Below, piece by piece: positions 13,455 through 63,270 of a DNA stretch of 64,000 nucleotides; positions within the stretch are counted from its first letter, which is position 1; each line of letters begins with the position of its first letter. The position numbers were made by a program, and so were the translations under genes. Origin of the DNA: Tubiluchus corallicola (lineage: Eukaryota > Animalia > Priapulida). The notes beneath the pieces were generated by a model that saw only the letters and a list, made by a program, of their open reading frames with translations, was not told where the DNA came from and ran no database searches. The DNA is taken from positions 434,001 to 498,000 of the forward strand of contig JAQGDQ010000100.1 in assembly GCA_030141605.1 (NCBI GenBank), in the 5' to 3' direction.

Positions 13455-14797
13455 GATGGAGTCTGCTATTGTGTGAAAACGTCAATGTGTCACTCAATAA
13501 TAAATAACAAAATTCTTTAAGCTATATAAAAAAATATTGGTCAAACAAACAACAACATATAGCACAACGTTCAGTGGGCGTACAGTGTTCTATTGTTTGA
13601 TGGTAACGGACGCAAAAAATGTTTTTATTTATTTTGATACGCAAAGTGAGTTTTCATACTTTCCCCGCCCAAGGGGACGAAAAGGAGTTGGGAATTAGGA
13701 ACTTCTATATCCCTTCCGATTCCTTTCTTTTTAGACACTGTCGGAGATTGTTGTGCGCCGTTTACCGCACAATAAGATAGTGGGTCTTGCCAATATGCCG
13801 CACGAGCTTGTTGGGCTGGCCCATATAGCGCACAATAACACTTTATCAGAAAATGAACTACAACGAGATACGTGGTTATCAAAATAATGATGCACGTCGG
13901 GTTTCATCCTTGTACATGTCAGGTGTAAAGACCTGCTTGGGTGTACGTAAGCAAATACAAAATGACTTACTCTAGCTAAATATGCCAGATTTTTTTCATT
14001 AAAATGTACAATAATCATGAGGAACGCAGCAACTTTATGGAGATGATAGAAAAGTGTCATGTTGCAGAAACTCCCATGGCAGATCATGTGTACAATGTCA
14101 GGATGATGGCAATGGATCCTGCAATATTTGACATGAGAGACAGAAAATAAAGGTGTTTGAATTTCGATGCTAGCACAATATGTACCTATAAGCTCATTAA
14201 TCATAGCTTGGTCAGTCACCTACTTTACTGGAATCGCATGACAACAATAACAGAATCAGCTAAACTCTTTTGGACTAGAGCCCATATACCAGCCATCGGC
14301 TACACATTGAAATGGGACGATTAAGGCATTTACCCAGCCAATCTAGAACCTGTAGTTGCCCAATGACTGATGAGGTACATGATGAATGATGATGCTTATA
14401 ATACTACTTGCATTTCATTATGCCAAAAAAGTTTTTTTTACATGCACCCAATTTATACGTGACGTCACTGATCTAGCAGTAAGGAACATGCCTTGTTACG
14501 GACTAACTTCTTTTATATCTACATTGTAATCTTATTTTAATTTTGTTAGTCATTAAATTACATGCATACGGCTAGAAATAAAAAAGCTTGCCTAAAATTT
14601 TGATTAATAATTTGCAATTTCAGCCCGGAATGAAACTCAGACTCAGTGTTCTACTTTGGTACTATATACTGCTCTTATTTTCCGGATATTCGACGCGTGC
14701 GCAATAGCGTAAATACCGTTTATGGGTTAGCGCGCAAAACGGCGTCAAACAGTAATAAAGTTGTTTTTTCAGATGGCGCAAACTTTGCAAATAAGCG
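13455..14797. promoter_or_regulatory. Divergent (head-to-head) REEP5/PLPBP promoter region
   Basis: Start codons at 13454 (-) and 14798 (+) point away from each other, 1.34 kb apart; locally CpG-richer; palindromic CRE TGACGTCA at 14460-14467. Confidence 0.6.
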
Positions 14798-17700
14798 ATG
14801 TTAAAGTTACCAATGACTAAAATGAGTGAAAATGTTGGGAAATCATTGCGCTTGGTTCTAGAAAAGATCAAAATAGCTTCAGAAGCAAGGCCACAGGTGT
14901 GTAACCGTCACGCTTTGTTATTTCTGTGTGGTTCACAGGCAAACTTACTCAGCGATGTGGCAAAAGACCGGTGGTCATTCACTAAGCTTAATTAAAAGGA
15001 CCCTATAAAGATATAAGTTAAGATTGATCTGTAAACTGCAGAAGACTGGTTATTATTATTAGAAAAGAAAATGTGACATTAAAATAGTAATATCTTATAT
15101 AATGATATTACTGATTATTTTGATGCAGTGATATTAGTGATCCACAAAAATGGATGAAGATTATGTTTCTACCTTGGTGCAAAGCTTGAAGGAATGATAG
15201 ATCTGCACAAAATTTAAACTTTAATTACAGTGTTACCCCAATCTTAATTATTTTATTAACATTTTTTAGCATGTATTTAACTGCTAATTTATGTTCGGTT
15301 GATATCTGTCTATGAAACTATAGAAAGAAAAAGGAAAGATTAAAAAATTGCATGAATTAATATGTTTGTGCCATCACCTTCTGCGCAGCCATAACGTGAC
15401 ATCTGTGACATGATTACCTGTGGCTACCTGGACTGGCTCTAGCTAGTTTAACACCCCAGGGAAAAATATTTTTGGTGCTCCCATTTCAACTGCTTCGCCA
15501 TGGTCCAACTTCACTAGGGAACCCTCCCCAAAAGCAAATTTTTGTTGTAAACAATAAAAAGTTTCGGCATCTTCAATTCATATACATAACTTTGGTTGCA
15601 AGTACTTTATTATCGAATCTTCTTACTGTTCAATGTTCGCCAGCTTTTTACCCTTTTGTCTTCTATATTACGCTCCTGCTCCTGAAGGCCTTGATTTCTT
15701 ACAGCTTTATCTGTTTAAATTAGATAAATGCTATAGCAAGAATCTTTTTTATTAATGGAACAATGTGCTGCTGTTAATGGTTGCTTATACAGGACACACA
15801 CAGTGAGAAAATTATCTACAACAACTTGTCTGAAACACATTTTTCCTCGTCTGTCGGCTCAATTGATTCTGTTTCGGAGAGGTTTTTATTAAACATGCTT
15901 AATTTTCTATCATACGAACTGATCCTGTTCTTGTACAGTATCAAATCTGTCTCAGACAAAATCAGGTCACTCTTGTAAAATGCAATCTTTTTGGTCATGT
16001 GTCATCAAAGTAAGTTGTTCATAACAGTGTGCTTCATACAAAAGCTATCCTGTGCGAGCAAATTTGCCTGGACAAATTGATGCAGACAGATTTTTTTATT
16101 ATGTCCGACTAGTATACATCTCTGGTTTGCTGCTTTATGCTTTATACAGTATAAACTATGGGCAAAAAACAGGGAAATGCGTCAGTGTAGTCTGCCTGAA
16201 ATGATGTGATCTTAGAGTGACAGATAAAGCCAAAAGTAGTTCTAATTTGTTTTGTTGCGGGAAAATAGCTTCATGCTAGTGTGGATTGATCTTACATTTT
16301 GGCATGAAAATAATGAAAGAAATTGTTTCATTTAATCAGTGTTGTGCACTTGAGCATTTACACTTGTACTATGTTGTTATTTATGACAACCTTAAAAATT
16401 AAAGAATTACTTTTACAAAAATACAGCATTTTCTGGTGCACAGTAGCAGTCTTCATTAGGAAATATATGTAGAATGATTTAAAATTCTGAACGAAATAAA
16501 AATATTATGGCAAAATCATGAGTATCTATTAAAATAAAAATCACAGAGGAAGAAAAATGAGAAATGCAGTGTATCATTAGTGATTAATTAAAGAAGCAAT
16601 ATATTTTAAAAGCAAAATGTTCTGTGGAACAAACCCTAATTAGAATATTAGCAAATTAGCTAATTAGCAAAGCCAAGTTAGAATATTTTACAATTAAAGC
16701 AGATACAACTAAGTGCATTTTAGTGATGTTTCTAGCTGGATATCAGATTCTTGCTCTATTAAGCATCAAAGCTGTAGTTAGTTTCTCTGACGTTGATAGC
16801 CAAAACACTTTTGGGTTTTTGTTGGTGTATGTCTTCCTTATGCTTTCTAATTTTGACTTTCTCACTATGACTGCTAATGTGCAGTAGAAACTTCATATAT
16901 TTCAATAAAAGTTTAATAAAACTTATTATGTAACGGGTTGCTTATGAAACAGATATGGTTCTTATGGTTAAAGAATTTAAAAGCTGTACTTAATCACTTC
17001 TAGAATTTGTAGCCCCCAAAATTTTGTGACGTAGGCAATTGTCTAGTTTGCTTAGCGGTAGAGCTGGCCCTGATTATTACTTATGCATGTTTGAAAAAAG
17101 TGACACAGATTGACTAACCAAAAGCACATGTTGCTGTTATTTAAAGCTAATACCATACCATTATTTAAAGATAAAACGGTATCAAGACTTTGTCCTGAAT
17201 GTGGAATGTTCCAAATCTTATACATTTTATTGTTGAGCCTTTCATTTTATTTTTTGCATAGCATATTTTTAATAAAATTTCATTTCTGTTGTCAGTTGTC
17301 GTTTACTTTAAAATTTCAGCAAGTAGTTGGTACAAGATATTTTTTTCTTTTATTGACATATTATATATTTCTTGTAACTTTGTGAAATGAATGCCATTGA
17401 TTGTAGCTGACAGATTATATGAAATTAATTTTTTTTAGGAATTACGAAGAGGATTGCCCCGGTTAGTTGCTGTGACTAAAACCAAACCAAAGCATCTTGT
17501 GAAAGAAGCTTATGAGCATGGACAAAGAAACTTTGGTGAAAACTATGTAAGAAACATGTCTTTGATTAACTTAATATGTGACAGTACTGTGCATCGATTG
17601 GACATAGTCGTTTACTAACATATCAGGTGATTTTGTGTAACCGCCGTATTATTAGGAAGTGACTATTTAGGGCTAAGTTTTTGCAGCACCATGGCACCAC

Positions 17701-20700
17701 AAATGAGTTGGGAAGAAATTCTTGTTATTAGTCCAGTCGAGTTGACAGAAGCAGAGGCAGACAACTTATATTCACCTTTGATACAATTTAAAGTTTCTGA
17801 AGAAGACAATGTAAAACATTTGTTTCATTTGTTCTGTGTTACACAAAAGGTGTTGGAAATTAAAGGTGGAGAAGCTGAAGTTTACATGGATGAACTAGAA
17901 AAAATGGCCGAACAACAAGGACAAGATAGCGCTGAACGAGAAAAAGAACTTTTGAGTGAAATCGAAGAGCTAAAACGTGACATTTTACGATTAGAGGATG
18001 TAAAGGGAGGAGATAAAGATGTCCGATCTCTAAGAAATGATTTACGAGATCTAGAAAGGCAAAATAATTTGTTGCGACAAGAAATACAGGGTGTTGAACG
18101 TGAACTTAATGCTCAGAATCGAAGTGTTGAGCAGCATATAATGAGAGCTGAAAAAGCAGAGACTGAACTACGTGAACTGCGTCTGGACAATGAACAGAAT
18201 AAGGCTTCTGTACTAGAACTGCAGCTTCAACTGGAAACTCAAAGAGAGGCAATATCGTCTAAGCGTGGTGATGACGCTGAAGCTAGAAGTAAAATTCGTG
18301 CTAAAAATAAAGAGTTAAGTGAAGCTCTTGATGAAATTACTAACCTGACGGAAGCAAATGATGAACTTCAGAGCAAGTGCGAAGAAATGAAAAACAAGTT
18401 AGAGGATGCTGTTCGTGAAATGGATAAAATAACAGAAGATTACGTTGCGATAAAATCTGCTTTAGATAATGCAGATTCTAAACATGATCACGTTGTGCAG
18501 GAAAATGAACGGCTTAAGGTGCAGTTGGAAGATTTCAATAAGCAGCAACGTGAAAAAACTGAGGCTGATGATGCTGTGATGATAGCAGTTAATGCCAAAG
18601 TAGATGAGTGGAAGCAGATTCTTAGTAAGAAGGATGACGAAATTGTAGAATGTAAAAGTGAAATATTTCATCTTGAAGAGCGTCTAGCTGCCATGTCAAT
18701 TGATACAGACAGAGAATATATTTCAGTGCTTACAAAGGCTGTTGAAGAAAAGGATAAACTGATTGAAAGTTTGCAGCAGCAATTAAAGGATGCAACAGCG
18801 GAAATGGAATCTAATGCTGCAGCCTTGGAAGATCTGCATCAGCAACTTGAAAGTAAAGCTGGAAGTGTAGGCACTGACAAACAGCAAGAAAAGGTTGTGG
18901 CACTTCGAAGTTCTCTCAAGAAAAATGAAACTCTGATAACAGACTTGAAAACAAGAGTCACTTTGGCTGAAGCAGATGCAGCTGAAAAAGACAAGCAGTT
19001 AACGGAAGCGCTTACTAGAATGCGGCAGTATGAGTCTGGGGAATATGGGTTAGCCGAAGCTGTTTCAGAAATAAAGCAGCATAAAGCTCAAATCACAGTC
19101 AGGGATAGACAAATAGAAGAACTCGTGCAGCACTGCAATAAAATTGAAGTCAAACAGAGTGAACTTTGGGAGGAAAATCAACACTTACGTGAAAAGCAGA
19201 ACTTGGATCCATCAGAACCCTTGGATTTTCACCAGAGCTTGGTGGCCAGAAAGCAACAAGATAGAGTACTTGTACTTGCCTTGGAAAAAGAGTTGGAAAC
19301 TTTAGAAGAAGAGAGAATTAACTTGAAAAAACAAATTCGGCAACTTGTTCAGTTAGCTGGTAAGAGGGTTATGGAGCTAGGTTCAACTTCTGAGGGCCTA
19401 GAAGTGACAATTTCTCATTTGTTGAAGCCTGCCTTAAAAGATATACGTAGTGGGAAATTTGACTCTGTAGCTGTCACACACACAGATGTTTTTAAACAAC
19501 AAGTAGAATCAAAAGTATATCAACAACAAATTAGAGAACTCGAACAGGAAATCACAGATTTAAAGAAAGCTATTACTACTAATAAGCATTTTGAGGAACG
19601 CACACATGAGTTAGAAGAAGAGAACAAGAATTTGGAACAGGGCTTAAGAGAAATACTGGAAGCATTGAAGGAGCATCAGGGTCAGAATTCTAAAGGTAAT
19701 GTGACTACCATTCTCTGTCCCACTTTGGAGAAAGTTTTGTCCTTGCTGGAAGCAAAACTGCAAGCTGAAGCTGGCAATTTAGGATCTCCATTTAAATCAC
19801 AAGCCGATGAATTACGTGGCCGTTGCGAAGAATTGCGGAATGAACTGAGACTTGCACATAATGAAGTATTAAGAATTACAACTGAACGTGATAATGCTCT
19901 AGAAAAAATTTCGGAGCTTCAGATGTACAAAGAAAAAATGCAGCAAAAAGAAATTTATAGCATAAAAGCAAAATTTTTACAATTACCACAAGATTTAGCT
20001 GCTAGTAGCAGTGAAGTTATTAATAACTTAAATGAACATTTAATTGAAACTGTAAATGAATTGCTGTTGAAGCAAAGGACTATTTGCGACATGGAAGAAG
20101 CATTGGAAGAATCTAGGCGCAAATTTGCTGTTGTAGTTCACCAGCAAGGACTTGTATACAAGGATTTTACTTCATCAAAGGAACATTGGGAGCAAGCTAC
20201 ACAGCAATTAGAATCAAGAAACAGTGAGCTGTTGGAAAAGAATGCGATTGCGGAAATAAGAAGTGCAGAATTTGATCGTTTGTTAGATTCTTTAAGTCAG
20301 GATGATGTAGAAGTAAGAAGGCGATTGGCTGAATTAACCCGCAAAGTTACAGTTTTACAAGTCAATGAGAGCAAGCTGTCTCGAAAGTACACAACTATGC
20401 AAGACTTAGAGAAAGTCCTGCGCAAAGAGAATACCAAATTACAGAGTGAAGTTCTTTCAATGGAAACTACAGTAATGAAGCGCCTTGGATATTTACAAAG
20501 ACACAAAGACATGAGTGCGTACAAGATTCGCGGTTTGCAACAAGCTTTGGAAAGGAGTGTTCCTGAAGATGAGCTAATACTGGCTAACAAGCATTTCACT
20601 GAGTTGACAGAAAAATACAGGGATGTTTTGCAGAAAGTGAACACGTTGGTAGACAAAACTGAAACTACATCTAAATTAGAGATTGAATTAAATTCCTTAA

Positions 20701-23700
20701 AATCTGACAAATATTCTCTGGAAAAGGAGTTAGAAACAGCAAAAGAGAAGTTGCATGCACTAGATGCAGCATTAGAATTCTTAAAAAAAGGAGGAGTGGA
20801 AATTGTCCAGGATACTTTGTCAAATGAAACTATTACAAACTTGTCAAAACAAGTAACACTACTGGAAATGAGAGAGTTGAATGAAAGACAAAGAGCCGAA
20901 CATTCGGTTAGATTGTATGAACAACAGAAAACTACGTTGCGAGAAGTAGAAGATAGAAATGCAGAACTTGAACAGAAATTTGCAGAAATTTCAAAAATGA
21001 ATTTGCAGTATCAGAAAGAAGATAGAAGGCTTAGAGAGGAATTGGAAAACAGTGTTACTAGGGCAGAGAGCAAAGCAGATAAATTGAGAATAGGTAAATT
21101 GGAAGAGTCTGAGTCTACATTGAAGGAAGAGGTAGAAAAGCTAAGAGAGATAGCCGATGTGGCTTCATTTCAGCGTGATGCTAAGAATTTTGCGCACATA
21201 TCAAGAGATACAGAGTTATTTTCCATTAGGCAGCTGCTGTTAGATTTCCAGTCGAATTCTGATGATAAATCAACTATAGCTAAACTTCACCATCAGTTAG
21301 TAGCTTTACAAGTAGGTGAAGGAACAGCTGTTAGGAAATTAGAACATACTCAGAATGAACTGAAAAAGGTGCAAGCACAGCTTTTAAGAACTGAGCAGAG
21401 ATTAGATGAACGAGAAGAGAGAATGTTTTACATGGGGCAGGATTCACGTAGCAAAATTAGATATTTGAAAAAAAATTTGCATGATGTCCGAAGGAAGTTT
21501 GCAGGAGCCATTCCTTTACTGGAGCAAGAAAAATTTTCTGAGACGTTTTTTAAGTTGCAAGTTGATAAACAGAAAACTGAAGAAGAGCTGGCTTTGGCCT
21601 TGTCTGAAAGATGTAAAGCAGATTCAAAGGTAGCTGAAATGGATTTTCAACAAAAAGGACTGCAGGAACTCATTAGAACACTGAAAGATGGCAGAGGAGC
21701 CACAAAAATTACTGAGTGGCATGCAAAGATGGAAGAAATTCGTCTAAACGAATTGAAACTAACCCGCGAAGTAAGCCAATTGAGGCAGCAAATTCTCCAC
21801 GTGACACAGCTTAAAAAAACTGCTGAAGATGGCATCAGAAATTTGGAGAAAAAGCTTGTGCAGCAAGCTTCTATGCAAGACCAGAGACAATTAACATGGG
21901 AGGAAAGAGAATTGGCACTTGAAGAAAATGTTGCTCGTTTGGAAAAACAACATTGCCTTATTAGTAGCGCAGCTGCAGAATTTGAAGAGGCCATGGGTAG
22001 TATGCCAGATCCTGATGAACCAGTAGCTACTCAATTGGAGCAAGCAGTTACTACTATTAAACGAAATGTGAAAGTGATTCTTGAGAGTCGAGCAAAAAGC
22101 AAAGAATTGCAGTCAAAAGTTATAACACTAGAAGCAAAATTAAAAGAGGTGGATGACAGTTTAATATCAAGAGAACGAATAATTTCTGAACTGAGACTTC
22201 GTTTGCCGGTAACAGTTGAAAGGGAAAGGACTGTAACAAAAGCCAAGGAATCAGGCAAACCGAAATTTCACAAATCAACTGAAAGTGAGTCAAAGCAAGG
22301 TGTTACGATTGCCAAAGAAACTGTCAGTAGCTTGCGGGAGCGCTTGGAGCAAAAACAAGATACTATTCTTAAATACCAAGAACTGCTTAAAGATGCTCGT
22401 GATGAAGTGCGACAGTTAGGTCTAAAACATGAACAAGAATTAAAAGCAATGCACGGTAAATTACAAAAACAGCAGGACCATGAATTTCAGCATTTTAAGC
22501 AAGCAGCAATGGCATTAATTAATAAGCCCGGTGTGCAAGCACCAACTAACAAGCAGGTCGCTCAAGTTAATGAACTTAAAGCCCTTGTTGAAGAGCAAGA
22601 ACAATCTATTTGGGCTTTGAAACATAATTTGGATGAGTCTAACATAGAAATTAATAGGTTAAAATTGGCCCTAGAGGAGCGAAAGTTGAAAATAGAACAA
22701 GAAAAAAAGTTAACAGAGGAAAGTAGTTTGGGAAGTGAAGTAGCCATGGAACAAAATTACGATAAACTGCAAGCAAGAATTACTGAACAGGCGGAAGAAC
22801 TGGCACTGGTTCACCAGCAGCTAGAGGAACAGAGAGCAGTTAATATGCGCGCTCCTTCTGCATTATTGAAACAGACTGTAGAAAAACTAAAAAATCAGTT
22901 GATTTTGAAGGAGAAGCAGTATGATGCTCTTAGTAAAGCTTTGAGTGACGTCAGGGCTGATATGGTGCGTACAGCTGAAGATAATATTAAATTGCATAAC
23001 AAAGGAATATCTGATGACATTCAAACTCTCATTACTAAACATACGCAGGAACTGCAGAGTCGTAATAATGATTTAGAAGCTCTTGTTGACAAACTGAATG
23101 GTCAACTGAAAAAATATCAGGAAGCAGAACCAAAGACCAAAGATGTTAAAATAGATGTAAGTAAGAAAGATTCAATTATTCAGTCTTTAAAATCTGAAAA
23201 GGAAAGACTGGAAAGTGAAGTGCATGAGCTAAAGCAAAAATTTCAGCGACTTGTATCACAACGTAGTGTGAGGACTGTGGGGCTTGATCATAAAAATGAA
23301 GTGGCTGAATTGCGTAGAAAAATAGAACGGCTTGAACAACAGCAGCAATCACGGCAGTCTGTAAAAACTGATTTTTCTTTGTGGGAAGAACGGAAGAAGT
23401 ATGAGAAAAATATTGAGCAGCTAAAGAGAAAATTGAGTTTGAAAGAGGTAGAATGTGCTGAACAGCAGAAATCTGTATCAACTTTAAAGGAAATGGTAGA
23501 ACAAAATGAGAAGGAGAAAACAGTATTAAGGAATCGCCTTCGTGATGCCCAGAAAACTGATGGAGTACCACTCGGAACTGAAGAAAAAATTCAAGAACTA
23601 AAGAAACAAGCTTTTCAGCTAGAAGAAGAAAATTTAAATTTAAAAAGACAAGTTTCTGTTGTGGCTCAAGCAGGTGAGTTGCATCAACACCGACTGGAAA

Positions 23701-26700
23701 ACCAGTTACTTGCAGAAAAGATAGAAATACTTGAAAAACAGTTGGAAAAACAAGCAAAGGGGACAAAATTGAGTTCTGAAGTATTTCAAGAGTTTAAAGA
23801 AAGAGAGCAAAAACTACAACGGAAAATTATTAGTCTTTCAGAAGAAAATATGAATAAACAGTTTGACCTTGAGAAACTAAACTCGGATATTCCTAGATTA
23901 AAGGAAAGAGTTAAGGATCTGGAGCAATATATTGATGTATTAAGAAATGAAAAAGAGGAAAGGCCAGATTCTACTAGATCCACTAGCAGTGGTGGAATTC
24001 GGAAAATTGGTACAAGTGGGAAAACCACTATAGAATTGGAGAGAACAATTAGTTTGATGAAGAAAGTTATTGAAAATCTTAAAACAGAAAATGAAAGGCT
24101 AAAAAAGACATCTCGCCCTATGAATGAAAAAATCACTTCTCTTCTGGAACAAAATGAGAAACTAAGTTCTGAGCTTCAACAGCAAAAAGAAGCAAGTGAT
24201 CTCATTATGTCTAAGATATCTTCTGAAAATGAAAAGCTCCGACTTCAATTTGATAAAGAGAAAAACATTAATGAAAAGTTGAGAATAGAGATGCAAGAAT
24301 TGAGCATGAAGGAACGTAAACTTCAGAGTGATTTACAAGAAGTCAGAAGTGCTGCTCCAGTTAGTAAGGCAAAGCGATCGACAGTTGCATATCGGATGAT
24401 GGAAGACAAATTACAAAGTTTGGAAGCAGAGCTCAGCTCCAAATTGCAGGTGTTGGACAAATGTGAGGAGGAAAAACAGCAGTTACAAGAGCAGTTGACA
24501 ATGTTTCGAAATGTTGCGTCACCCCCATCTAGTGAAGCATACAGGTCTCTAATGTTGGAGAATGTAGACTTGAAGTCAGAGCTTCGTGATGTCCAACTAG
24601 AAAACATGAAGTTACAACGAGAGATTGAGCATCTAAAGCTTGACGCAGATTCCCATACACCTCCTTAAAGGATCTTAAAGCATGGATTCAAACAATCCAT
24701 CTAGCAAAAGGCTCAATACGAATTATAGTTGTCAGGGTCGGCAGGCAATTTGAAAATGATGCCAATATTCATTTAACCCATATTTTGTTTTTGCAATTCC
24801 CTACTTCAGTCACATCTATCAGTATATGTTTCTATGCTTCAAATCCTAAAACACTGGAATATATTTGCTGATTGAGATAACAAGTTTTTCTATCAAAGTT
24901 TCGACCTGCAGAGGCTTGTTAGAGCCTGAATCTGCTGTTTGCTAAGATGAGTAGACCAACCAAATACTAGTCTAAGCAAGCATCCATTTTATTGCACCAC
25001 TACCATGGTTTTGACTATTTATGATATTAGTTTTACTGGGCTGTGATCAAGTATTTTACTTTTTTATTGAATTTGCATAAAAATTTTGTGCAGCTTTGCT
25101 TAAATGTCTGTGACACATGGTGTACAATTAAACATTATGCTTACTGCCTGTCGCATGTGAGAGGGTGTGTGCTCGAATGTGACTATATGAGTGCATGTGC
25201 GGTGTTGCATGCATACTTATGCACAAGCCATGCATCTGTGTTTTCCTTTAAGACCTTAGGTTGAGCAAGTAATCGCTAATTTTCAAACATTTGATAACTT
25301 AACTCCTTCCCAGTGTTTTAAATTTTGGAAGCTAAATTTTGTTTTACTTTGTATATGTAGTTGCTGTGTTTTGTTGCCAACACTCATAAATTATATTGTT
25401 TGCCAAAAATCAGTCATCTGGACACATCACATGTATAGTAATACCCAAATTGATCCTCTCGCTCACATTAGTTAGTCTAATGGTTTTGTATTATTTCATC
25501 ATGTGTATGTGTGTATAGCACTTATAATGCAGTGTGCTCGCGGCTAAGCTTGTAATACAAATTAACCCTTTTTATATTTTCTAACCAATCTTTAGTAAAA
25601 TAATAGTGTTTATACATTTATATTCTGTAGAAAAATGTTGAAGTTCTTGTTTTCTGTTTTGTTTGAGATCACCAGCATAATGATATACTATATAATATGG
25701 TATAGGCTACTATAAAAATTATTAAAATGTTCTTAAAGTGTATCAGTTAAGTGGTCTTTGGTCTGATTGGCACATATTAAGTTTGTTGAAGTACATGTAA
25801 CTAAATTGTAGCTTGCCAGCTTTTAAAAGTGATACGCTCACTGGTAACAGGTAATATTTTTAAATTTACTAGTAACATGGTGTCTTTACTGATTTTAAAG
25901 CAGTTAAATAAAGCAAAAGTGAGCAAAAATTAGTAATTTTTAGAAAAGACAAAGTTATTGTCTTCAGGTGGATGCACAATAATATAACTTTTCGTTATTA
26001 GTAGGGAATAGTTTGTAGGCTTTTAGTTAGTATGTACTGGTCAGCTTAAATTTTCAAAAATCCTCAAAACTGCAACCTCAATTAAGTAGAATCCATGCTA
26101 TGAAGTTGATTGGCTGTACAATGTTTTAGGCTACTTTACATTTTTAAAAAGACAAGTTTAATTCCCAACAAGAACAGAAGAACACAAAAAAGAATTTACT
26201 GAACTCATGATAATGAAATGCTAATTTCAGTTGGCAATGTCTGACCAGACCTAAGTTGAACTTTTAGCTTACTCTCTGATTATAAATTTGCATTTTTTCC
26301 AAATCAGGATGTTTATGTTTTAAGTGCAGCACAAAATAAGTTAAGCTAGTTACTTGAGTTACCGTGATATGTACGGCTTCTAGAGTGCAATTCTGTCACG
26401 TGGATCATCGATAAATTAATGGGTAAGGGCTTCTTTTAAGTTTTTCATATAAATTATCATTCTAAAATGTTTGTTTTCTGTAAAAGTTTTTCTGCACACG
26501 TTGCTGACTTCAAGTGACCTGTTAGTTTTGGTATTACAGATTCAAGAGCTGGTCGACAAGTCCAACGACAAAGAGGTAGCGTACATAACTTTACCTATTT
26601 TTACATTAGAATTGCATATTTGTGCCTACAAAAACACCTACAATTAAATGTATGTGACTCCTACAGATACAAGTTTATTCATTAGGCTCGTACTCGTCCT

Positions 26701-29700
26701 ATAATTCCTATAAAACTATAACAATATCCTATAATTCCTATAAAATCATGAATTCTCAATGAAATGAGAATGTTATTGGTATTTTTCGCACGCATAACCA
26801 CAATTAGATATTATAAGTTTTTTATCTTCATGATTTGGGCATTTTAGTAAATGTAAATAACAGTTGTCTGTCGCGAAGTATGTATGTTTTTACAGAGTTG
26901 GTATTCTCATTGCGTGGTTGATGGTTCTGGTGTATGCTCTAATGGCGTGTGAACACAAGATTCGAAGATCCCCGAACGGTTAGTACAAAGTTTTTTATGT
27001 CTGATTATTGTGACGTGAAATGGATAGTTTTTAGGATCACCCAACACCTAATAAGGTGGCCCAATGATAACTGTATGCATTCTGTGGACTTTCGTTGATC
27101 CAAGCAGGGGTGCACCCATTTTGCCAATATTATTGGTGCACCCATATCGCTGTTGTTTATATCACACGCTGTTTTGTGTATATCGCTGTGTGTAGTGATG
27201 TTCTGCAATAATCGTGCTAAATTTTGTTATTTGACGAATCTTTTGTGGCTGCTTATTCATGTTTGCGTCTGGCCTCTTTAAATATTCTAAAATTTTAAGA
27301 TGTCAGAAAATTTTCGAACTTTTTACGATTTCCAATCAGTGTTTTGCGATTAAACATTCATTCCTTTCATTTAAGTTCGTCAATTTCCAGATATTACATA
27401 TATTATCATGTTCTTTAACCAATGTTAGTTCGTTTGTGCTAGACATTGTGTATCATTTCCGTAAGGGCTCTTCCTGCTCATGTTGTGTTTGTAAAATGTA
27501 ATTTTGAACAATTCCAGGTGGCGAAAGAGCATACCCAGAAGTGTATAAGCCGCTCAATGACAATGCCAACTTCAACCAAAGAATGCTCTCCTGTTACAGG
27601 TAGGAAAAATTATTTTCTTTTGCAAAGAAATTGTGAAAATCGCTGTAGTGTAAAGTTAGAAACTTTTGTTTTTAAGGGAAAATGTCCTATAATTCCTATA
27701 TTTTTTCAAAAAATGTCCTATATTTTTTTAGAATAATGTCCTATATTTTTGAAAAGTAGAGTACGAGTCTCTAATATTGCTTTCACATACAATTTGGCTC
27801 TTTCATTAAACTTTCAGTGTCTGAATAGTTTTATCAGTGACAGAGGCATGCTTGTAGCCAAATGCCGATTTTTATAGTTTTTTCAGACTTAAACAATTTG
27901 ATTTACATGTTTCTTCAGCTGTTAGAAAAATGCACCGATATAAGATGGCATTTCATTGGACATTTACAAAGAAACAAAGTTAACAAGTTACTAGGTATGT
28001 GATGAAGTGGTCTACTCTTAAACATGGGCTGTGTATTCATTGTTAAAACTACTGTCATTTGCACTTGATCTGGAACAGGTGTTGTCACATGGTTTCTAAA
28101 TTGTTGTTGGAAATCTGGTGAAAATGCCAAAGTTTGTGCCTATAGCGGCTTGGTGCTGTGGAATCATTTCAATAAAGACTACTAACCTATGCCAGTATTT
28201 GCACTCACTTGCATTAACAAAGTTATCAAATAAAATTACAAATGCACTTTATATTGGCATTTACCTAGTTTTCTGTATAAATATAATATGATGTAAATCC
28301 AGTTTGACAAGCCCAGTTTTGTCATTTTAACTTTTTTTTAATTTTTGTAGGTGTTCCAAACTTGTACATGATAGAGACGATTGATTCAGAAAAACTTGCA
28401 TGTGCTCTGGATGCAGCTTGGGGAAAGAAAAATACAGGCAGCAAACTTAAAGTGATGGTTCAAGTGAATACAAGTGCCGAAGAAAGTAGGTGTTTCTTGT
28501 GCAGTTATTGAGGAAGTGCTTGTAGAGCCCCATCTGAGCTCTTTCTGTGAAATTTTTCACTTAAAGATAGGATTCGAAATGCGTGTTGCATGTTGACTAT
28601 TTCAATGTGTTCGTGAACACTATGGATATTAACAAAGCTCATGGTGCGTCTTCTGCCATTTTGATTACTGCTTCATGAGAAATTCCTAACAATTTTTTGG
28701 AAGCCGTTTATCTGTCGAAATTTCAGGACCACAGTAATCAATGAGAAATTATAATGATGGCATTAGCTTATTATTATATTACGTAAATTGTCTACATATT
28801 TTGGCTGCATAACATTTTGTAGCAGAGTGAACAGTACGAAATGTACGATTATTTGGTGAAAGAACTTCAGCTACTTTCAGACTAACATAAAGACGTATGC
28901 TTCTCTAGCCTCTCAAAAGCTCAATTGGAAGAAATGTTATTGTGTGTATGTCCCAAGTAAACAAAATTGACCTGACCAGTTGAAAGGAGTCTGTTAATTT
29001 GCATGTGGTGTATTTTAAAATTAGTCCATTCCATTTTGTTTTAACCATGAAAATGGTCACTGGAAAATTGAAAACCCACGAAATCCACTTAGCAGTTGCC
29101 ACTTTCCGTTTGCGTATTGTGCGAAGTATACTGACACAATAGCTATCGTTTTTGGCTGAATATGGGTCACACATTATGCATTACGTACACATGGAAACAC
29201 TTCCACTAAATACAAACTGTAGTAGTCACGTTTTCCTCATCATGGGCAAAACTTAATGATTTTATAAGCACTCAAATAGCTAATCAGCCAATTACCTCTC
29301 CCAAATAGAAAATTTTCTAGCCATGTAATTGTAATAGTATACCTAATTGTACATAGACCCTTTGTACAAAAAAAACTGAAAAAGCTAAATAATGATATGG
29401 AATTGCTTTTTCTGAATTGCGTTTGGTGTATGTTAATGGGTACACATTTTAAGTGATAGATTTGACTAGTAATATTAAATTGTTTTTGAAAAAGCTACCT
29501 GATTGTTTGTTTTAGGTAAGCACGGGATCAGCCCCTCAGAAGCGCATAAACTAGTTGCTTATGTACTAGAGACTTGCAGTAACCTTGACCTTGTAGGACT
29601 CATGACAATTGGTGCATTTGACCATGACTTGTCTACAGGACCTAATCCAGATTTTTTGGTAAGAGAATACATGTGTAATCAGCCACAATGTGCTATTACG

Positions 29701-32700
29701 TGCAGCTTGTGAAAGACACGGTTATTGAAATTTCAAAATGTTTAGTATTTTCGTTCTTTGTTATGAAAATCTGCAAGCTATGCATCGATGCAACTTATTA
29801 TCCGAAAATATGCTGTTACGCTTATTGTTTAACCAAGTTTGTGTAGCTGTGCTGCTTCAAACTAATATACTGGGTTGCATTGCCTGCTTTCTGTTGATAG
29901 AGCATAAATTTGTGCTGCTCAAACTGGTACCTGAGTTTGTTCCCTACTGCCCCCTCTCGAAGAAAACAATGTAAATATTGCAAGAATATCACATGTATTG
30001 TCATAACTTTCACGGGAACAAATTCTGAAATGTCTTTACACTACTAAAGTACACATTAAAACTTAACCGGCACTTGCTTGCTCTGATTAAAACTGCAGCC
30101 CTTCCCACAAAAAACCTGTGCCACCTTAGGCGAACTGTCTCCTTGTCGCCTTCATGCTGCTGGCTAACAGTGTACAAATATCGTATGTTTGTTTACCTTT
30201 AACAATTTCAGTGTATTCAGCAATGAAAAAATTGAAAATGTACTCTAATGTGTTTTAATTATCAGTTTAATTAAGTACTACAGCTGTAATACAGCATAGT
30301 AGCTTTCAAAAGGATAGTTGGCAGTTGCAAATTATATTTAGAGCAAAATCTAAAATTATAAATCAATAAAGAAGTTTCTGTATCTAATCCTGATAGAAGC
30401 ATGTTTAAAATGAAAAATAAAATTTTACTCAATCCATTTTCATCAGTTTCTTTCTTTGTTAGACAGTGAATTGCTAGCAATGCTATTATTAGAGTTCTTT
30501 TGAAATGCTTACTCTAGATAAACAGTTTTTCACTGTTCTTGTGAATCTAATCGGTTTTGTTCCAGCTTTAATTTTTTGGTATTATATGGAACCAAAAATA
30601 TGTACCAACACTGTTTGCTATATTACTAAAATCACTTACACACACTGAATATAATGTCAATATAACTGCCAATTATACTGAATGTTTCTAAGCAACTATC
30701 AATATAACTGATGAAATCAAATTTAATGTAAGGCAGCAAAACAAAAAAATTCATCAATTGCATTGAGAAAGTTATTAACAATTATTACTGAGTGTGTGTA
30801 TAGCCCTTATAGTAATCGGACAATTTTATTTTAGAAGGTGTTGCCAGAAAGTTGTTGGCATAAGCGTCAAGTATTTCGTCAGAGCTAAATCATTTTCAAA
30901 AATACAAGTTGATGTAAATACACTCATGACATACATTTTGAGTATGAATTTTATTTTCAGTGTCTTCTAGACTGTCGAAGAGATGTTTGCGAGAAACTTA
31001 AACTTAGTGTTGACAGTTTAGAGCTCAGTATGGGAATGTCAAATGATTTTGAACATGCTGTAAGTAAATAGATGGCTGTAAATTTGATACTAGCTGTTAG
31101 CATACAATGTTACAAGTTTACATGCATTCAGTCTTTTGCAGATTAGGGGCCGGATTAACGTATCTTGCCTACGAGATGCACCTACGCATGTTTGCATACG
31201 AAAACCTTAAGCACGTTTGGCTTTTTGTCTTAAGTACGGTATTAGGTGCCATTCACGGTAATCTTACATTATGAGTATGTAGCTTGATGTTTCAAGTCAT
31301 ACTCCATTTTGATCTTCGTGCTAAAATATACACTTTGTTACTGTTGATAGTGCATTATCATAGCATTTGGAAATGAATCCCAATTATATTATGTTTATTA
31401 CCTATACATGTTTAACCTAGCAGCATCGTGCGTGTTACAAACTTATTTTTTCATTTGTTGTTTAGTTGACTTACTGATCACCACGAACTGACAGCGTATA
31501 TTACGAACCGACAGCATAAATTAAGAATTGCTCTTTCAATTTGCTTATTTACTTAATTAGTTTGTAATAAAAAACATAAGCCTGATAAAGCTTCAATTAA
31601 TTGTAACTGTAATTGTAGTATGTAATTGTAATTTGTAATCCAGTATTAACGTATAATTCATATTATTCATGTAGTTACAGAATTATATTTACATTATAGT
31701 AATGGATCTACAGATTATGCAGCTAGAGTTACGGAATAAAAACATTATAGTTACAAAACTACGTAGTGGATAAAAACACAAAGCAAGAATGCTATACTAC
31801 AATAAAGCATATATACTCAATATAATAAACCACAGACAGGAAGAGATGAAAAATAAAGAGAAAGAAAGAGGAAAGAATGAAAAAGTAATTCTGAAGAGAT
31901 TTGTGACGTAGTAGCATAAAATAAACGATCATAAAGCAATCTGTCAAGGGATGTGCAGGCAACTTCAAAATTTAACTAAAGTATTATTGTAACAAACGCT
32001 GCTGTGGCAAACATTGGTAAAAGGTGAACTGCTGTATATTTAAAAAGACAAATAGCTTTATATGATTTTAATCACTACTACACCTATCACTATGTCGTAA
32101 TTGGCAATTTATAATTAAGTAAATTTTTCACTATTATCTGTATTAGAAACTAAAAAGTCGGACATCCTTGGTCAAATATTTAGCAATTAGGAGCATATTT
32201 ATTACTTTATTTTCGCTGTTTTATTACTAGGTTGCCTCGCTACGACAGACTTACTGGTGCTCCTGACCACTCGTAACCTTTTGCATGTTTCTACGACAGT
32301 TTTGAGTCTCGTGAATCTCACACAAATCCTTAAGTGCGCGTAATTTATGCATGCGTAACTTCTCTCGTAAGTGTGGTACGTGAATTACGCGTAAATGCTT
32401 TCACATGCGGAGTTTAAGTGTACTAAGCATTTCATACTTATGAATGATATGTGAATCGTAACTACTTTCTTAAGCTTGCCTAATCACTCGTGTGCACAAA
32501 GCATGTGCTTAGCACGGTACATAAATCCAGGCTCAGGATATGTGCTAAAAATAAATCTGCCTTCCTTTATAGTTTCTCTCATAAATTTTTTGTATGTAGT
32601 TCTGCATATTGTTAGCCAAAGTGCAGCACCCACCCGTAGAATCAGTGCAATGCAGATACTAGTGAACATGATTGGAATATATGTCATTGAAATGGATAAT

Positions 32701-33649
32701 CTTTTAAGATGAGACAGTGAACTTGTTGAAGTGTCTTAGCCTATTCAGCTATGTATAAATTCTGCTTAGATCGTTGGTAATTCTGTGGAGGCAGTATGGC
32801 GGATGTGAATAAAACAACCTTGGCCACCAATCCATTTAATGACCAACTGTTTATTTTGTTTGCCATGTTGTCTCTACGTAATTATTGATCTTAAGATTAT
32901 ATTTTTCTAAAAGGCGGCTCATGATATACCAGAACTTTATCTTTGAAGTTCCTCTATATTATTTCTTACTTTGGCATTATCTAGTCAATTTAAGTGCATC
33001 TGAATGTGGCTTAGACACAGACCTCTGCCTGTTCAATATGTGTTCTTAAGATTGTCCTTGATAATGAGGTATGTTCCAGTCCTGCCTCAAGTATTTGCAT
33101 TACGTCTCACCTTTGTTTAAATTCAGTCTGTGTTGACTGTATTAACTGCAGACAGGAAATAGTAGAATACTTTTACTCAGATACTGGATTTTGAAGATAA
33201 TTTTCAATGTCAGAAAAAAGTTTGTCACTCTCACTGCCTCATTTCTTATGCAATAAGACATTTATTTTCTGTTAAGCTGTAATCAAATGTCATAATTATT
33301 TATAATCACAGAAAAGTAATAGCAGTTATAGAACACATTACGCGTAGCACAAAATTCCAATGCTTGAAAATTTCATCTTGGATATGCAATCTTGATAGTG
33401 GTAATATGTTCCTAAAAACCTATCTAAAATTCTGTCTTTGTTTCTTCAAAACATGTGCTGAATAGTTAATTGTCCTGTGATTTTGCAATAATAGAGAAAC
33501 ATTTTGTTATACAGATACTACTAGGAAGTACAAATGTTCGAGTTGGCAGTACTATATTTGGAGCACGTGTATATCCCACAAAGTCTACCTTAAGCGGCAC
33601 AGAAACCTCATCAAAAGATGGAGCAGCTGTTTTAGGTAGTTCCAGCTAA
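14798..33649 (+). CDS. PLPBP: Pyridoxal phosphate homeostasis protein (PLPBP/PROSC, YggS family), 276 aa, 8 exons
   Basis: join(14798..14896,17439..17546,26540..26575,27919..27994,28351..28485,29516..29658,30961..31059,33515..33649); GT-AG, phases consistent; 831 nt. Motifs: LVAVTKTKP (PLP lysine), [78 protein letters not shown] at 34132-34137. Confidence 0.97.
17691..24668 (+). CDS. CEP290: Centrosomal protein of 290 kDa (ciliary transition-zone coiled-coil protein), single exon, 2325 aa, nested in PLPBP intron 2
   Basis: Uninterrupted 6,978-bp ORF with Kozak-like CACCATGG. Collinear CEP290 motifs from N- to C-terminus: [139 protein letters not shown]. Confidence 0.95.
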   Translation: MAPQMSWEEILVISPVELTEAEADNLYSPLIQFKVSEEDNVKHLFHLFCVTQKVLEIKGGEAEVYMDELEKMAEQQGQDSAEREKELLSEIEELKRDILRLEDVKGGDKDVRSLRNDLRDLERQNNLLRQEIQGVERELNAQNRSVEQHIMRAEKAETELRELRLDNEQNKASVLELQLQLETQREAISSKRGDDAEARSKIRAKNKELSEALDEITNLTEANDELQSKCEEMKNKLEDAVREMDKITEDYVAIKSALDNADSKHDHVVQENERLKVQLEDFNKQQREKTEADDAVMIAVNAKVDEWKQILSKKDDEIVECKSEIFHLEERLAAMSIDTDREYISVLTKAVEEKDKLIESLQQQLKDATAEMESNAAALEDLHQQLESKAGSVGTDKQQEKVVALRSSLKKNETLITDLKTRVTLAEADAAEKDKQLTEALTRMRQYESGEYGLAEAVSEIKQHKAQITVRDRQIEELVQHCNKIEVKQSELWEENQHLREKQNLDPSEPLDFHQSLVARKQQDRVLVLALEKELETLEEERINLKKQIRQLVQLAGKRVMELGSTSEGLEVTISHLLKPALKDIRSGKFDSVAVTHTDVFKQQVESKVYQQQIRELEQEITDLKKAITTNKHFEERTHELEEENKNLEQGLREILEALKEHQGQNSKGNVTTILCPTLEKVLSLLEAKLQAEAGNLGSPFKSQADELRGRCEELRNELRLAHNEVLRITTERDNALEKISELQMYKEKMQQKEIYSIKAKFLQLPQDLAASSSEVINNLNEHLIETVNELLLKQRTICDMEEALEESRRKFAVVVHQQGLVYKDFTSSKEHWEQATQQLESRNSELLEKNAIAEIRSAEFDRLLDSLSQDDVEVRRRLAELTRKVTVLQVNESKLSRKYTTMQDLEKVLRKENTKLQSEVLSMETTVMKRLGYLQRHKDMSAYKIRGLQQALERSVPEDELILANKHFTELTEKYRDVLQKVNTLVDKTETTSKLEIELNSLKSDKYSLEKELETAKEKLHALDAALEFLKKGGVEIVQDTLSNETITNLSKQVTLLEMRELNERQRAEHSVRLYEQQKTTLREVEDRNAELEQKFAEISKMNLQYQKEDRRLREELENSVTRAESKADKLRIGKLEESESTLKEEVEKLREIADVASFQRDAKNFAHISRDTELFSIRQLLLDFQSNSDDKSTIAKLHHQLVALQVGEGTAVRKLEHTQNELKKVQAQLLRTEQRLDEREERMFYMGQDSRSKIRYLKKNLHDVRRKFAGAIPLLEQEKFSETFFKLQVDKQKTEEELALALSERCKADSKVAEMDFQQKGLQELIRTLKDGRGATKITEWHAKMEEIRLNELKLTREVSQLRQQILHVTQLKKTAEDGIRNLEKKLVQQASMQDQRQLTWEERELALEENVARLEKQHCLISSAAAEFEEAMGSMPDPDEPVATQLEQAVTTIKRNVKVILESRAKSKELQSKVITLEAKLKEVDDSLISRERIISELRLRLPVTVERERTVTKAKESGKPKFHKSTESESKQGVTIAKETVSSLRERLEQKQDTILKYQELLKDARDEVRQLGLKHEQELKAMHGKLQKQQDHEFQHFKQAAMALINKPGVQAPTNKQVAQVNELKALVEEQEQSIWALKHNLDESNIEINRLKLALEERKLKIEQEKKLTEESSLGSEVAMEQNYDKLQARITEQAEELALVHQQLEEQRAVNMRAPSALLKQTVEKLKNQLILKEKQYDALSKALSDVRADMVRTAEDNIKLHNKGISDDIQTLITKHTQELQSRNNDLEALVDKLNGQLKKYQEAEPKTKDVKIDVSKKDSIIQSLKSEKERLESEVHELKQKFQRLVSQRSVRTVGLDHKNEVAELRRKIERLEQQQQSRQSVKTDFSLWEERKKYEKNIEQLKRKLSLKEVECAEQQKSVSTLKEMVEQNEKEKTVLRNRLRDAQKTDGVPLGTEEKIQELKKQAFQLEEENLNLKRQVSVVAQAGELHQHRLENQLLAEKIEILEKQLEKQAKGTKLSSEVFQEFKEREQKLQRKIISLSEENMNKQFDLEKLNSDIPRLKERVKDLEQYIDVLRNEKEERPDSTRSTSSGGIRKIGTSGKTTIELERTISLMKKVIENLKTENERLKKTSRPMNEKITSLLEQNEKLSSELQQQKEASDLIMSKISSENEKLRLQFDKEKNINEKLRIEMQELSMKERKLQSDLQEVRSAAPVSKAKRSTVAYRMMEDKLQSLEAELSSKLQVLDKCEEEKQQLQEQLTMFRNVASPPSSEAYRSLMLENVDLKSELRDVQLENMKLQREIEHLKLDADSHTPP
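26683..27773. mobile_element. Non-autonomous DNA transposon (~1.1 kb) in PLPBP intron 3
   Basis: Inverted ends AGGCTCGTACTC (26684-26695) and GAGTACGAGTCT (27759-27770); TCCTATA subterminal repeats at both ends; TSD not clear. Confidence 0.6.
31146..32534. mobile_element. Possible old Harbinger-like non-autonomous element in PLPBP intron 7
   Basis: Imperfect inverted ends GGGGCCGGATTAACGTA and TACATAAATCCAGGCTC; ACG/CGT-rich subterminal sequence at both ends. Confidence 0.35.
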
Positions 33650-35282
33650 CTACAGGCCCTCAGCACCATTGTGAAGTAGCCAAAATACCTCAGTTTTTGT
33701 CACAAATCTTTGTCTTCATTTATACATTGAAAGTTTCCTGCATTTTTTATTGTGATTATATTTACAGGACATTTTATTCAGATTGTAATTTTCGTATATA
33801 CTCTACTGTACAAAGTAGCATAAGCCCTATGCACACTACTCAAATTAAGTAACAGGTGTGTCAGTTGTGTAGGTTATTGGTGTAAATGTCAAACACTTAT
33901 AGAATTATTGCTGTAGGTAAACTTATATAGCACAGTTGTACATTGTATTGGTTGTATGTTATACTGAATGATGTGTTAAGTATTTATAAAATTTTAAAGT
34001 TTTAAAAATTTGAATGGCATATTTGTTGTGACTTGGTGGTTAAACCTTAATTTTGTAAGCTCTTCTGAAATTCCAGCTAGTGTGAACTTATTTATACGTT
34101 CACTATAAGGTCATTTATTTCATTTGTGAACAATAAAATCGGCCATTTGATGATGCACACATAACATCGTCAACAAAAACAAAAAAATGTTTTTATAATT
34201 TACATAATGCATGTTTGATTGGCAAGAAAAAAGACAAATAAAATACAAACTAATCACAACTTTGTTGCATTATATAGACATACACGTAATAAATATTTTA
34301 ATGATAGACTGGACCACACACTATTGCTACCAATGCAATGATATGATATCAATTTTTGCACATTTTCATACAGAGGTAAAACATGACTTGGTTGACCTGC
34401 AAAAACAAGATCTAGCAGTTAAAGTTTTAGACACTCATTGGTGGTGTGCTGCAGAAGCTTTAATTCTTCAGTCAGGCAAAATGAAAACACCAGTCACCAA
34501 TTAGACAACCAATTTAATGCAATTTTTGTTCAACTGACACTGTGGCAAACCAATAAAAAATACATATACAATATTTTTAAACAATTACAAATTTGGTTTA
34601 AAAAATGTCTGAATGACATATAATTATTATCAGTACATCATGCATTGACTAATTGCAAAATTTATCTTAACAATCTGCAATCATCACGTAAATAAACTGT
34701 TACAGCATGATTAAACATCAAGTATTTGACCTTATTTGTAATAAAAACTACATTTATAAAAGCTTCTATGCCAATGTACCGGTAGCGATCCTTAACAGTA
34801 ATTTTTGGCAACATAGCCTATATAAGTGTCAGCAACTATCCACATAGCAAATTAGCCAACATTAAGAAACATCAGCAGCTAAGTTACCCTGAACACATTA
34901 TTTAAAAAAAACAGCAATACTTTTACTATTTTGACATCTAAGTCAAATGGAAAGCTGCATGCAAGTTATAACATAATTGCCAAGGGGCATAAATTAATGA
35001 AATCGTAGTGCCACAGATAATGCATAAATATTTGTTGTCAGTTTAAATAAAATGATGTTACTGCAGATTTTATTTATTATGATGAATGTTGCATTATTTT
35101 CACACTTACTGATACCTGAAGATAATATGACTTGCACAAATAAGCGGATTTTTTCCATCAGGCAGAACAATGATATGTTCTCTGATTATAAGAAGAGAGA
35201 TGAACATGTGTGCTTTACTAAAGCAGAATATTTACAATATGTCTTGTGCTTGTTTCTGCAAGTAATGCAGTCAGCTCACTTG

Positions 35283-55206: not shown

Positions 55207-55827
55207 CGTGCATTCAGTATCTTGGTGTTTTATATATCATTGAATAAACAAAAAAGCATTTTAAAAATTTGCAAGTCACATTGATGAAACACAAAAAAAG
55301 ATGCAGAAGTATGCAGAAGATGGAAGTTGCAGAAGTATGCAAATCAAAAATGACTTGCAAGAAACAGTCCGAACATATATTACAAAAACAAAAATGAGAG
55401 ATTTGCAGAGATCATATGAGATCAGGTGTTAGCTTACACCTTGCACCCTAAATTTTTTCTGGAAAATTCATCCGAGCTATTTAAGAAAAACTGATTACTT
55501 CATCAGTTTGTCTCTTACAATGTCTAATGAACATGGTTTAACTTTGTTCTTGAAATTCAAAAATTAGTATTCACATAAGAATTATAATAGTCAAAATAAT
55601 TGCAAAAGCTTTGTCAATAGAGTAATGTTATGCTACTTACCATTTGTTTTCATACTACACATTAGTGTAAAAATTGTTCATAATGCCAACATTGGTTTTG
55701 CATACAGCTCTATGATTAAAGTGTGTTGAATAATCAGGTAACTGTTTGATTTCCCGCATTAGGTAATATAATTATTGCATATTATAGTATACATGTATTT
55801 ATCGCTACAGGCCATCTATCACCAATT

Positions 55828-57482
55828 TAAGTTCTGCTTATTTTTAATTTTGGTCTGCTTTTGAATACTCATAATTTTTCATTAACATTTGATTTGGTGT
55901 TGTGGCATCTTAAGAAAGTGCAAGTATATAAATATTGCAAAAAATATGCACATGTTATTTAAAATGTAAAAACAAGAATATGTAGTAGTAAGTGCAGTAG
56001 ATGTTAAGTGATATTTTTGGTAATCATATAATGACACTTATGGTTTGAATTTTAAAGAATCCGTTTCTTTAGTAGAATTTTCTTTCAAAATTACAATATT
56101 ATGCAATTTGTACAGATTTGTTGATATTTGAGAGATTACAACAGAAATTCTTTCACACAGAATTTTTATATCTTATGCTTGATGATTAGTATTTTGTATT
56201 ATTTACATTTTAGAGATTATATAACTGTGATTTTAGTTTTATCATTCCATTCTGTTTTACAAAATTCAACATTTAAAAAAAATATTTGTTTTTTTTTCTA
56301 TTGCAATTAAAATCTTACAGGTAGTTAATTGTTACGTTACTTTGTGCATGCTTGCAAATTGATTATATTTATGAGGTTTATTTACACCTATGAGGAAAAA
56401 TTCTCAAAAAACATTAGCACTATTTGGAGAGATATTGAAAAAGCATTACTTCACATTACTGATGTAAAAATATTGATAACATCATTAATTAACAATTGTT
56501 AATATGATAAACATGTCAAGTTAATAATTTTGATACATATTACAGCATACAGCATTCATTAACCACAATGCCATCATGAACATCATTCAGTTTCCCCAGG
56601 AACATTGTCTTAATTTTTTTCATTCATCATTTCTTTACGCAGGAGCTAATAGAAATAAGTTCTGCTTATTTTTAATTTTGGTCTGCTTTTGAATACTCAT
56701 AATTTTTCATGAACATTTGATTTGGTGTTGTGGCATCTTAAGAAAGTGCAAGTATATAAATATTGCAAAAAATATGCACATGTTATTTAAAATGTAAAAA
56801 CAAGAATATGTAGTAGTAAGTGCAGTAGATGTTAAGTCATATTTTTGGTAATCATATAATGACACTTATGGTTTGAATTTTAAAGAATCCGTTTCTTTAG
56901 TAGAATTTTCTTTCAAAATTACAATATTATGCAATTTGTACAGATTTGTTGATATTTGAGAGATTACAACAGAAATTCTTTCACACAGAATTTTTATATC
57001 TTATGCTTGATGATTAGTATTTTGTATTATTTACATTTTAGAGATTATGTAACTGTGATTTTAGTTTTATCATTCCATTCTGTTTTACAAAATTCAACAT
57101 TTAAAAAAAATTATTTGTTTTTTTTTCTATTGCAATTAAAATCTTACAGGTAGTTAATTGTTACGTTACTTTGTGCATGCTTGCAAATTGATTATATTTA
57201 TGAGGTTTATTTACCTATGAGGAAAAATTCTCGAAAAACATTAGCACTATTTGGAGAGATATTGAAAAAGCATTACTTCACATTACTGATGTAAAAATAT
57301 TGATAACATCATTAATTAACAATCGTTAATATGATAAACATGTCAAGTTAATAATTTTGATACATATTACAGCATACAGCATTCATTAACCACAATGCCA
57401 TCATGAACATCAATCAGTTTCCCCAGGAACATTGTCTTAATTTTTTTCATTCATCATTTCTTTACGCAGGAGCTAATAGAAA
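55828..57482. repeat. Near-identical 828-bp tandem duplication
   Basis: 55828-56655 is repeated at 56656-57482; the duplicated spurious ORFs at 56128 and 56956 are offset by 828. Confidence 0.95.
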
Positions 57483-63232: not shown

Positions 63233-63270
63233 ATCACCATGGAAACCAGCGAAACGGTTGTCACGGAAAC
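63233..63270. promoter_or_regulatory. Two tandem RFX X-box motifs
   Basis: ATCACCATGGAAAC (63233-63246) and GTTGTCACGGAAAC (63257-63270) versus the palindromic X-box GTTGCCATGGCAAC, in a locally GC/CpG-richer island. Confidence 0.65.

Follow-up and report, generated by a model that had tools for sequence, protein, structure and literature searches.

In a stretch of 64,000 nucleotides (nt) from the priapulid Tubiluchus corallicola (assembly GCA_030141605.1, contig JAQGDQ010000100.1, positions 434,001 to 498,000; hereafter the window), an intronless open reading frame (ORF) predicted to encode CEP290 lies within intron 2 of the gene PLPBP, on the same strand as its host. The overall explanation that fits best, and that we consider probable, is a retrogene derived from a CEP290 messenger RNA (mRNA) and nested in the host intron. 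The arrangement had been pointed out in an earlier sequence-only reading, whose coordinates proved exact: PLPBP exon 2 has its last base at 17546 and exon 3 its first at 26540, and the ORF spans 17691-24668, beginning 144 nt past the exon 2 donor.

The longest plus-strand open frame, which is also the sole long frame in the window, covers 17631-24668 and holds, from its first ATG, 2,325 codons and zero stops; the chance of a stop-free frame of the length of the CEP290 ORF is about 1e-68. Its product contains the PF16574 CEP209_CC5 domain and matches Owenia CEP290 from end to end (40% identity, 97% of the query), with end-to-end identities to animal CEP290 of 34-40% among the best 120 of 272 matches, and 48% identity to the Priapulus CEP290 model over one third of the length. 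Judged by homology, the ORF is a near full-length CEP290 orthologue. In a tree of residues 1-750 from 21 proteins, the window protein is sister to Priapulus caudatus with support 100/100, on a branch of 0.67 (0.44 for Priapulus), and this placement stays when 18 unnamed representatives are added (31 rows, some long-branched, from a fast search; Shimodaira-Hasegawa-like approximate likelihood ratio test, 100), Priapulus being the one scalidophoran included for comparison in both trees. No relative closer than Priapulus, named or unnamed, was found, the best long match in a search of 1.84 billion representatives having 42% identity; a search for shorter-length homologues returned one match, and the exact protein is absent from the collection searched. 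The membrane-side N-terminal and microtubule-side C-terminal regions of CEP290 are both present by alignment, and the protein in all likelihood serves today as a scaffold of the ciliary transition zone. In fly CEP290 the C-terminal third links the protein to axonemal microtubules (PMC7793253, PMC10914257). At 18340 all four sequencing runs compared have A and the window has C (residue 217, Asn in the runs and Thr in the window), the window base being likely an error or a rare allele. The Priapulus model (XP_014672525.1) is itself scrambled, with a duplicated, misplaced middle block and out-of-frame stretches.

The host is a complete gene, whose eight plus-strand exons (Table 1) splice into a 265-residue PLPBP with 59-61% identity over about 220 residues to all four PLPBP proteins tested. 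TIGR00044 is matched by four of the five exons tested singly, and for one exon the best named matches are arthropods, by a small margin. Intron 2 measures 8,993 nt, of which the ORF takes up 6,978; without the ORF 2,015 nt are left, a length inside the range of the other six PLPBP introns (356-2,542 nt), so the intron would be of ordinary size for the gene. In human PLPBP, intron 2 follows c.207 (Tyr69; donor c.207+1) and exon 5 begins from c.320 (PMC7932866). The human interval from c.207 to c.320 is 112 nt, the same as exons 3 and 4 here (36 + 76 nt), and the position of intron 2 is identical in the two genes. By this comparison intron 2 is an ancient host intron at a position common to human and, since the host intron is old, CEP290 would have moved into PLPBP and not the reverse. 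At its other end, PLPBP is preceded by a strong pyrimidine-rich acceptor-like site, and directly behind it comes a short upstream frame with its stop close ahead of the PLPBP ATG (14760-14821); acceptor-like AG sites also stand ahead of the starts of two neighbouring genes, GOLGA7-like and GLYAT-like, and introns in the 5' untranslated region or trans-splice sites are possible there. A REEP5-like gene (13458, minus strand) and PLPBP (14822, plus strand) lie head to head about 1.4 kilobases (kb) apart, which suggests a shared bidirectional promoter.

Human CEP290 has about 54 exons. At least 49 are shown in the literature consulted. At least 28 loci were obtained by scanning metagenomes with an alignment of CEP290, 24 with the gene in exon-sized pieces and two with a single piece. 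Splice sites could be mapped in 13 of the 28, several of which may be one species, and gave 36 intron positions, 17 of them recurring in two or more loci. Positions 739, 789, 862, 939 and 1099 are common to fish-like and protostome-like loci, positions 1119 and 1196 to coral-like and protostome-like loci, and position 939 coincides with the donor of human exon 25 at K939 (PMC5886250). The window CEP290 lacks introns at all 17 recurrent positions, and intron sites are also crossed inside single contigs of the runs X3 (15 of 22) and X5 (2 of 22). In the Priapulus model the misplaced blocks begin anew exactly at 940 and 790, each one residue past an ancestral intron; this hints that Priapulus keeps CEP290 introns and that the retroposition may be younger than that split, although the argument is indirect because gene predictors are prone to choosing such sites. 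Intron read-through at 1367 was considered for a repeated peptide in the same model and rejected, the alignment showing homologous coding sequence. Two loci elsewhere show long uninterrupted stretches. One coral-like CEP290 (L001, 2-6968; 88% to Porites) consists of two long pieces with one frame of 1,915 codons, unlike another coral-like locus (L026), which is multi-exon; it is probably a transcript with retained introns and, if genomic, would be a second near-intronless CEP290. In a diverged CEP290 (L002, 5649-7553; 36%), about 640 codons run uninterrupted across many ancestral intron sites, by sequence a partial intron loss in another lineage.

Gene structure supports the proposal of the sequence-only reading that CEP290 was retroposed into PLPBP, here into an intron that is old: all mapped ancestral introns are gone, and the host intron is common to human. 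The ORF very probably arose by reverse transcription. The introns could instead have been lost earlier at the ancestral locus, through gene conversion mediated by complementary DNA, and the intron-free gene then moved into PLPBP as DNA. We regard this as highly unlikely: it requires two rare events, the ORF is closely flanked, with 144 nt upstream, as in an mRNA copy, the neighbouring genes retain introns and Priapulus is probably intron-bearing on the indirect argument above, although the absence of both a poly(A) remnant and a target-site duplication, together with the partial intron loss in L002, would suit such a move. In the literature searched, which did not extend to subscription papers and supplements, CEP290 was nowhere described as intronless or nested.

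Sequence across both junctions, proposed earlier as a check on the assembly, exists in a single X1 contig (17121-26694) that passes in one piece through PLPBP exon 2, the ORF and exon 3. X2 covers 17517 to past 25100 gap-free, at the same depth on the ORF as on the upstream host contig, and X3 contigs (17615-19854 and 24282-24764) connect intron sequence with each end of the ORF; X1 and X2 may derive from the source sample, and X3 comes from another study. No joint that skips the insert was seen over 17380-25100, nor among the best 15 of 50 joints in another listing, and the ORF is free of frameshifts in X2 and X3 where covered. X5 covers pieces of the ORF at a depth of 3-5 and not the flanks, a gap that at such depth is no evidence. 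A further run presumed to be RNA (X6) gave no match on the ORF, which has no bearing on its expression.

X5 is diverged from the window, differing at 140 of 2,071 aligned ORF bases (6.8%), and so allows a codon test. Among the 34 of 122 changes listed, 21 are synonymous and the other 13 replacement, whereas the mutation spectrum of X5 itself predicts a synonymous share of 28% (p = 4e-5). The ratio of replacement to synonymous rates (omega) is about 0.24, uncorrected; in the N-terminal part the counts are 18 synonymous to 7 replacement. Purifying selection on the CEP290 ORF, which the sequence-only reading had assumed and had proposed to check in this way, is supported because of this synonymous excess against a diverged run.

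The protein ends early. The last 45 or so residues, conserved in 112 of the 120 homologues listed, Priapulus included, are missing, and a decayed in-frame relic of them follows the stop codon. A 19-residue segment of the relic, chosen by eye, scores 27.2 against the profile, the best of 113,482 other non-ORF windows scoring 24.2; the relic contains two further stops, and about four codons are missing ahead of it in comparison with all eight homologues checked. X2 and X3 span the early stop with no difference listed there, and tblastn and profile searches in six frames did not find the missing tail as an exon of its own further downstream in the window. As the profile match indicates, an early stop has cut off the conserved tail and the remainder has decayed, so the earlier description of the gene as intact holds for its 2,325 stop-free codons but not for these last residues. 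The persistence of 7 kb of open frame next to a decayed tail speaks against a dead gene. The tail motif is also absent from 30 of 40 long unnamed representatives, some of which may be incomplete or too diverged.

For traces of a remaining parent, contigs of X1 and X2 were compared with 17380-25100 at a threshold of at least 80% DNA identity, which gave two contigs of X1 and three of X2, the extra ones matching over 18-24 nt; no second CEP290 copy was seen in either set at this identity. A recent parent copy is thus excluded; an older diverged parent with short exons would escape the 80% test. We lean towards loss of the parent, an outcome that the sequence-only reading had raised and that stays plausible to this extent, and the ORF is likely the working, possibly the only, CEP290 of this animal. 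Most retrogenes do coexist with their parents (PMC4772013), and the ORF might be a functional retrocopy with a restricted role, for example in sperm flagella, that tolerates tail loss with a diverged multi-exon parent kept elsewhere. The reach of the second-copy test, the decay of the tail and weak constraint in the C-terminal sample of X5 would agree with such a parent. We nevertheless find it unlikely, given that two whole-run contig sets hold no trace of a second copy, that the protein is near full length on a branch that is not unusually long (0.67 versus 0.44 for Priapulus) and that the tail motif is missing from most of the long unnamed representatives as well; as the loss is common to these, a backup copy is not needed to explain it.

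Several observations weigh against a working retrogene in this position, or against parts of that explanation. No run of six or more A occurs within 1.5 kb past the CEP290 stop, and hence no poly(A) relic; there is no target-site duplication either, as the earlier reading had noted. The only 10-nt flanking repeat (17660/25012) was tried as a target-site duplication and rejected, being at chance level (188 of 500 shuffles). Both marks are expected to erode in old retrocopies. Long intron-poor stretches of CEP290 occur elsewhere, in L001 (which may be a transcript) and L002, and among the X3 and X5 contigs listed none connects the ORF to a PLPBP exon. The X5 contigs used for the codon test, at a depth of 4-5.5, may hold errors, and one of them, from the C-terminal part (residues ~1959-1989), has three synonymous to six replacement changes, which does not differ from neutral (omega ~0.7, p = 0.43, n = 9 changes). 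The acceptor proposed below for the CEP290 transcript stands no higher than rank 18 among the intron's 831 AG sites. Finally, the conserved tail has been lost, and within A-runs of the ORF the X1 contig is short of one nucleotide at each of two places (21468 and 22702), which we take as contig errors because X2 and X3 show no such deletions. The last two points would be expected of a processed pseudogene that died recently, or of an error in the assembly. We give that explanation very little credence: a frame of 7 kb is open, with a synonymous excess against a run diverged by 6.8%; the tail relic has three stops and a deletion versus none in the ORF; and one contig spans both junctions, with no insert-skipping joint among the joints listed.

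For an mRNA-derived retrogene, the following route may be proposed. A full-length spliced CEP290 mRNA would have been reverse-transcribed and inserted into PLPBP intron 2; in the simplest form of its expression, PLPBP exon 2 would supply the leader by splicing to an acceptor that lies 4 nt ahead of the CEP290 ATG, and the transcript would end at an intronic poly(A) site, for which candidates are listed in Table 1. The acceptor-like site ending at 17686 scores 5.7, within the 3.9-8.6 of true acceptors left out in turn. In a transcript that includes exon 1, the frame read from the PLPBP start would comprise 75 codons and end at 17729, overlapping the beginning of CEP290 in another frame; a transcription start in PLPBP intron 1 or exon 2 would therefore be more workable. 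Two ATGs in exon 2 (17512 and 17518) would, after splicing to 17687, be in frame with CEP290 and add 11 or 13 residues, a one-in-three coincidence. An in-frame PLPBP-CEP290 fusion protein was rejected as a candidate, since the PLPBP reading frame is not continued into CEP290 when either exon 1 or exon 2 is spliced to 17687. On this sequence evidence, use of exon 2 as leader, with CEP290 as an alternative last exon, comes close to an even chance.

Expression without host exons would also be compatible with a retrogene origin; either a promoter of its own within the 144-nt leader or trans-splicing of a spliced leader at 17686 would serve. The frames opened by two leader ATGs (17556 and 17576) terminate ahead of the CEP290 start, and acceptor-like AGs, found by eye, occur shortly ahead of the PLPBP, GOLGA7-like and GLYAT-like ATGs, as would suit this mode; an AG near an ATG is, however, common by chance, and no priapulid spliced leader was found in the titles and abstract starts of the literature searched. 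We hold independent expression to be possible, at somewhat less than even chance. No Rfam match occurs in 14000-34500.

Table 1. Positions of PLPBP exons, the nested CEP290 ORF and associated candidate signals in the window
Feature	Position	Strand	Evidence or remarks
PLPBP coding exon 1	14822..14896	+	ATG, GT donor; spliced frame open
PLPBP exon 2, 108 nt, phase 0	17439..17546	+	TIGR00044 match
PLPBP intron 2, 8,993 nt, donor GT at 17547	17547..26539	+	
Candidate 140-nt GT-AG mini-intron	17547..17686	+	Acceptor-like site score
Single-exon CEP290 ORF, 2,325 residues	17691..24668	+	ORF, homology, PF16574
Decayed in-frame relic of CEP290 C-terminal tail	24669..24731	+	Profile score
Candidate intronic poly(A) signal ATTAAA, GT-rich downstream	25127..25132	+	By inspection
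Further candidate poly(A) signals	25721, 25907	+	By inspection
PLPBP exon 3, 36 nt	26540..26575	+	
PLPBP exons 4-8	27919..33650	+	27919-27994, 28351-28485, 29516-29658, ~30961-31060, ~33515 to stop

The neighbouring genes are multi-exon, as stated earlier, and include a U12 intron, with a U12-type GT donor in the GOLGA7-like gene (36131, minus strand). We take these neighbours to be REEP5-, GOLGA7-, JTB- and GLYAT-like from their Pfam families, the GLYAT matches being weak. By eye, a decayed DNA-transposon-like element with inverted ends (putative family label) lies in an intron of the JTB-like gene (~42120-44540, minus strand), and two recent tandem duplications, one of ~0.4-kb and one of ~0.8-kb blocks, are intronic or intergenic (~36470-37330 and 55820-57480). 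A probable first coding exon of a further gene, with several cysteines and no Pfam match, is found at 63239-63370 on the plus strand.

Retrogenes in host introns and retrogene replacement have both been described. Retrocopies that use host exons include Taf9 in mouse Ak6, with 13 human and 14 mouse cases reported (Carelli et al. 2016, PMC4772013). Like Taf9, the window CEP290 would be a retrocopy in a host intron with upstream host exons, which are predicted to be used here; chimeric splicing is shown for Taf9/Ak6, whereas for CEP290, a 7-kb ORF in an invertebrate, splicing is only predicted. UTP14C in ALG11 and Utp14b in intron 1 of ACSL3 (PMC5750009) are likewise intronless copies within housekeeping genes, and UTP14C begins in a host coding exon with a common splice site, the arrangement that we propose for CEP290 and PLPBP exon 2. 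Unlike CEP290, these copies are testis-restricted and their X-linked parent is retained; UTP14C, moreover, sits in the last exon of its host, and CEP290 in a coding intron. As for replacement, 25 human orphan retrogenes are known (PMC3548309), and the amphioxus SYCP1 retrogene (PMC5803294), about 3.2 kb and located between genes, resembles the present case as a large coiled-coil gene that persists at a new locus as one coding exon under purifying selection. CEP290 differs in being 7.0 kb and nested, and parent loss, shown for those cases, is only probable here. Compared with known CEP290 (NPHP6; PMC7793253, PMC10914257), the window gene is a near full-length orthologue by homology, with PF16574, here as a single exon and without the last ~45 residues. 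The CEP290 case is notable for its length, the gene involved and the decayed tail.

A fuller version of these events is conceivable, although we think it doubtful: a 7-kb retrocopy would have fully replaced a CEP290 of about 50 exons and be made as an alternative last exon of PLPBP, with the choice at the exon 2 donor (140 versus 8,993 nt) switching between vitamin-B6 homeostasis and cilium building, and with the tail discarded, which would place it among the longest orphan retrogenes on record.

On the explanation that we prefer, an mRNA-derived retrogene, a very long mRNA, over twice the length of the amphioxus SYCP1 replacement, would have been copied in full and retained, and the insertion of the copy would be a rare, clean presence/absence marker for priapulids and their kin. 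The locus would also be a test case for how a nested gene and its host on the same strand share splicing and polyadenylation. Should the parent indeed be gone, this animal would be running a core ciliopathy gene that undergoes no internal splicing and has lost its final ~45 residues, and so would offer a natural test of which CEP290 regions are required.

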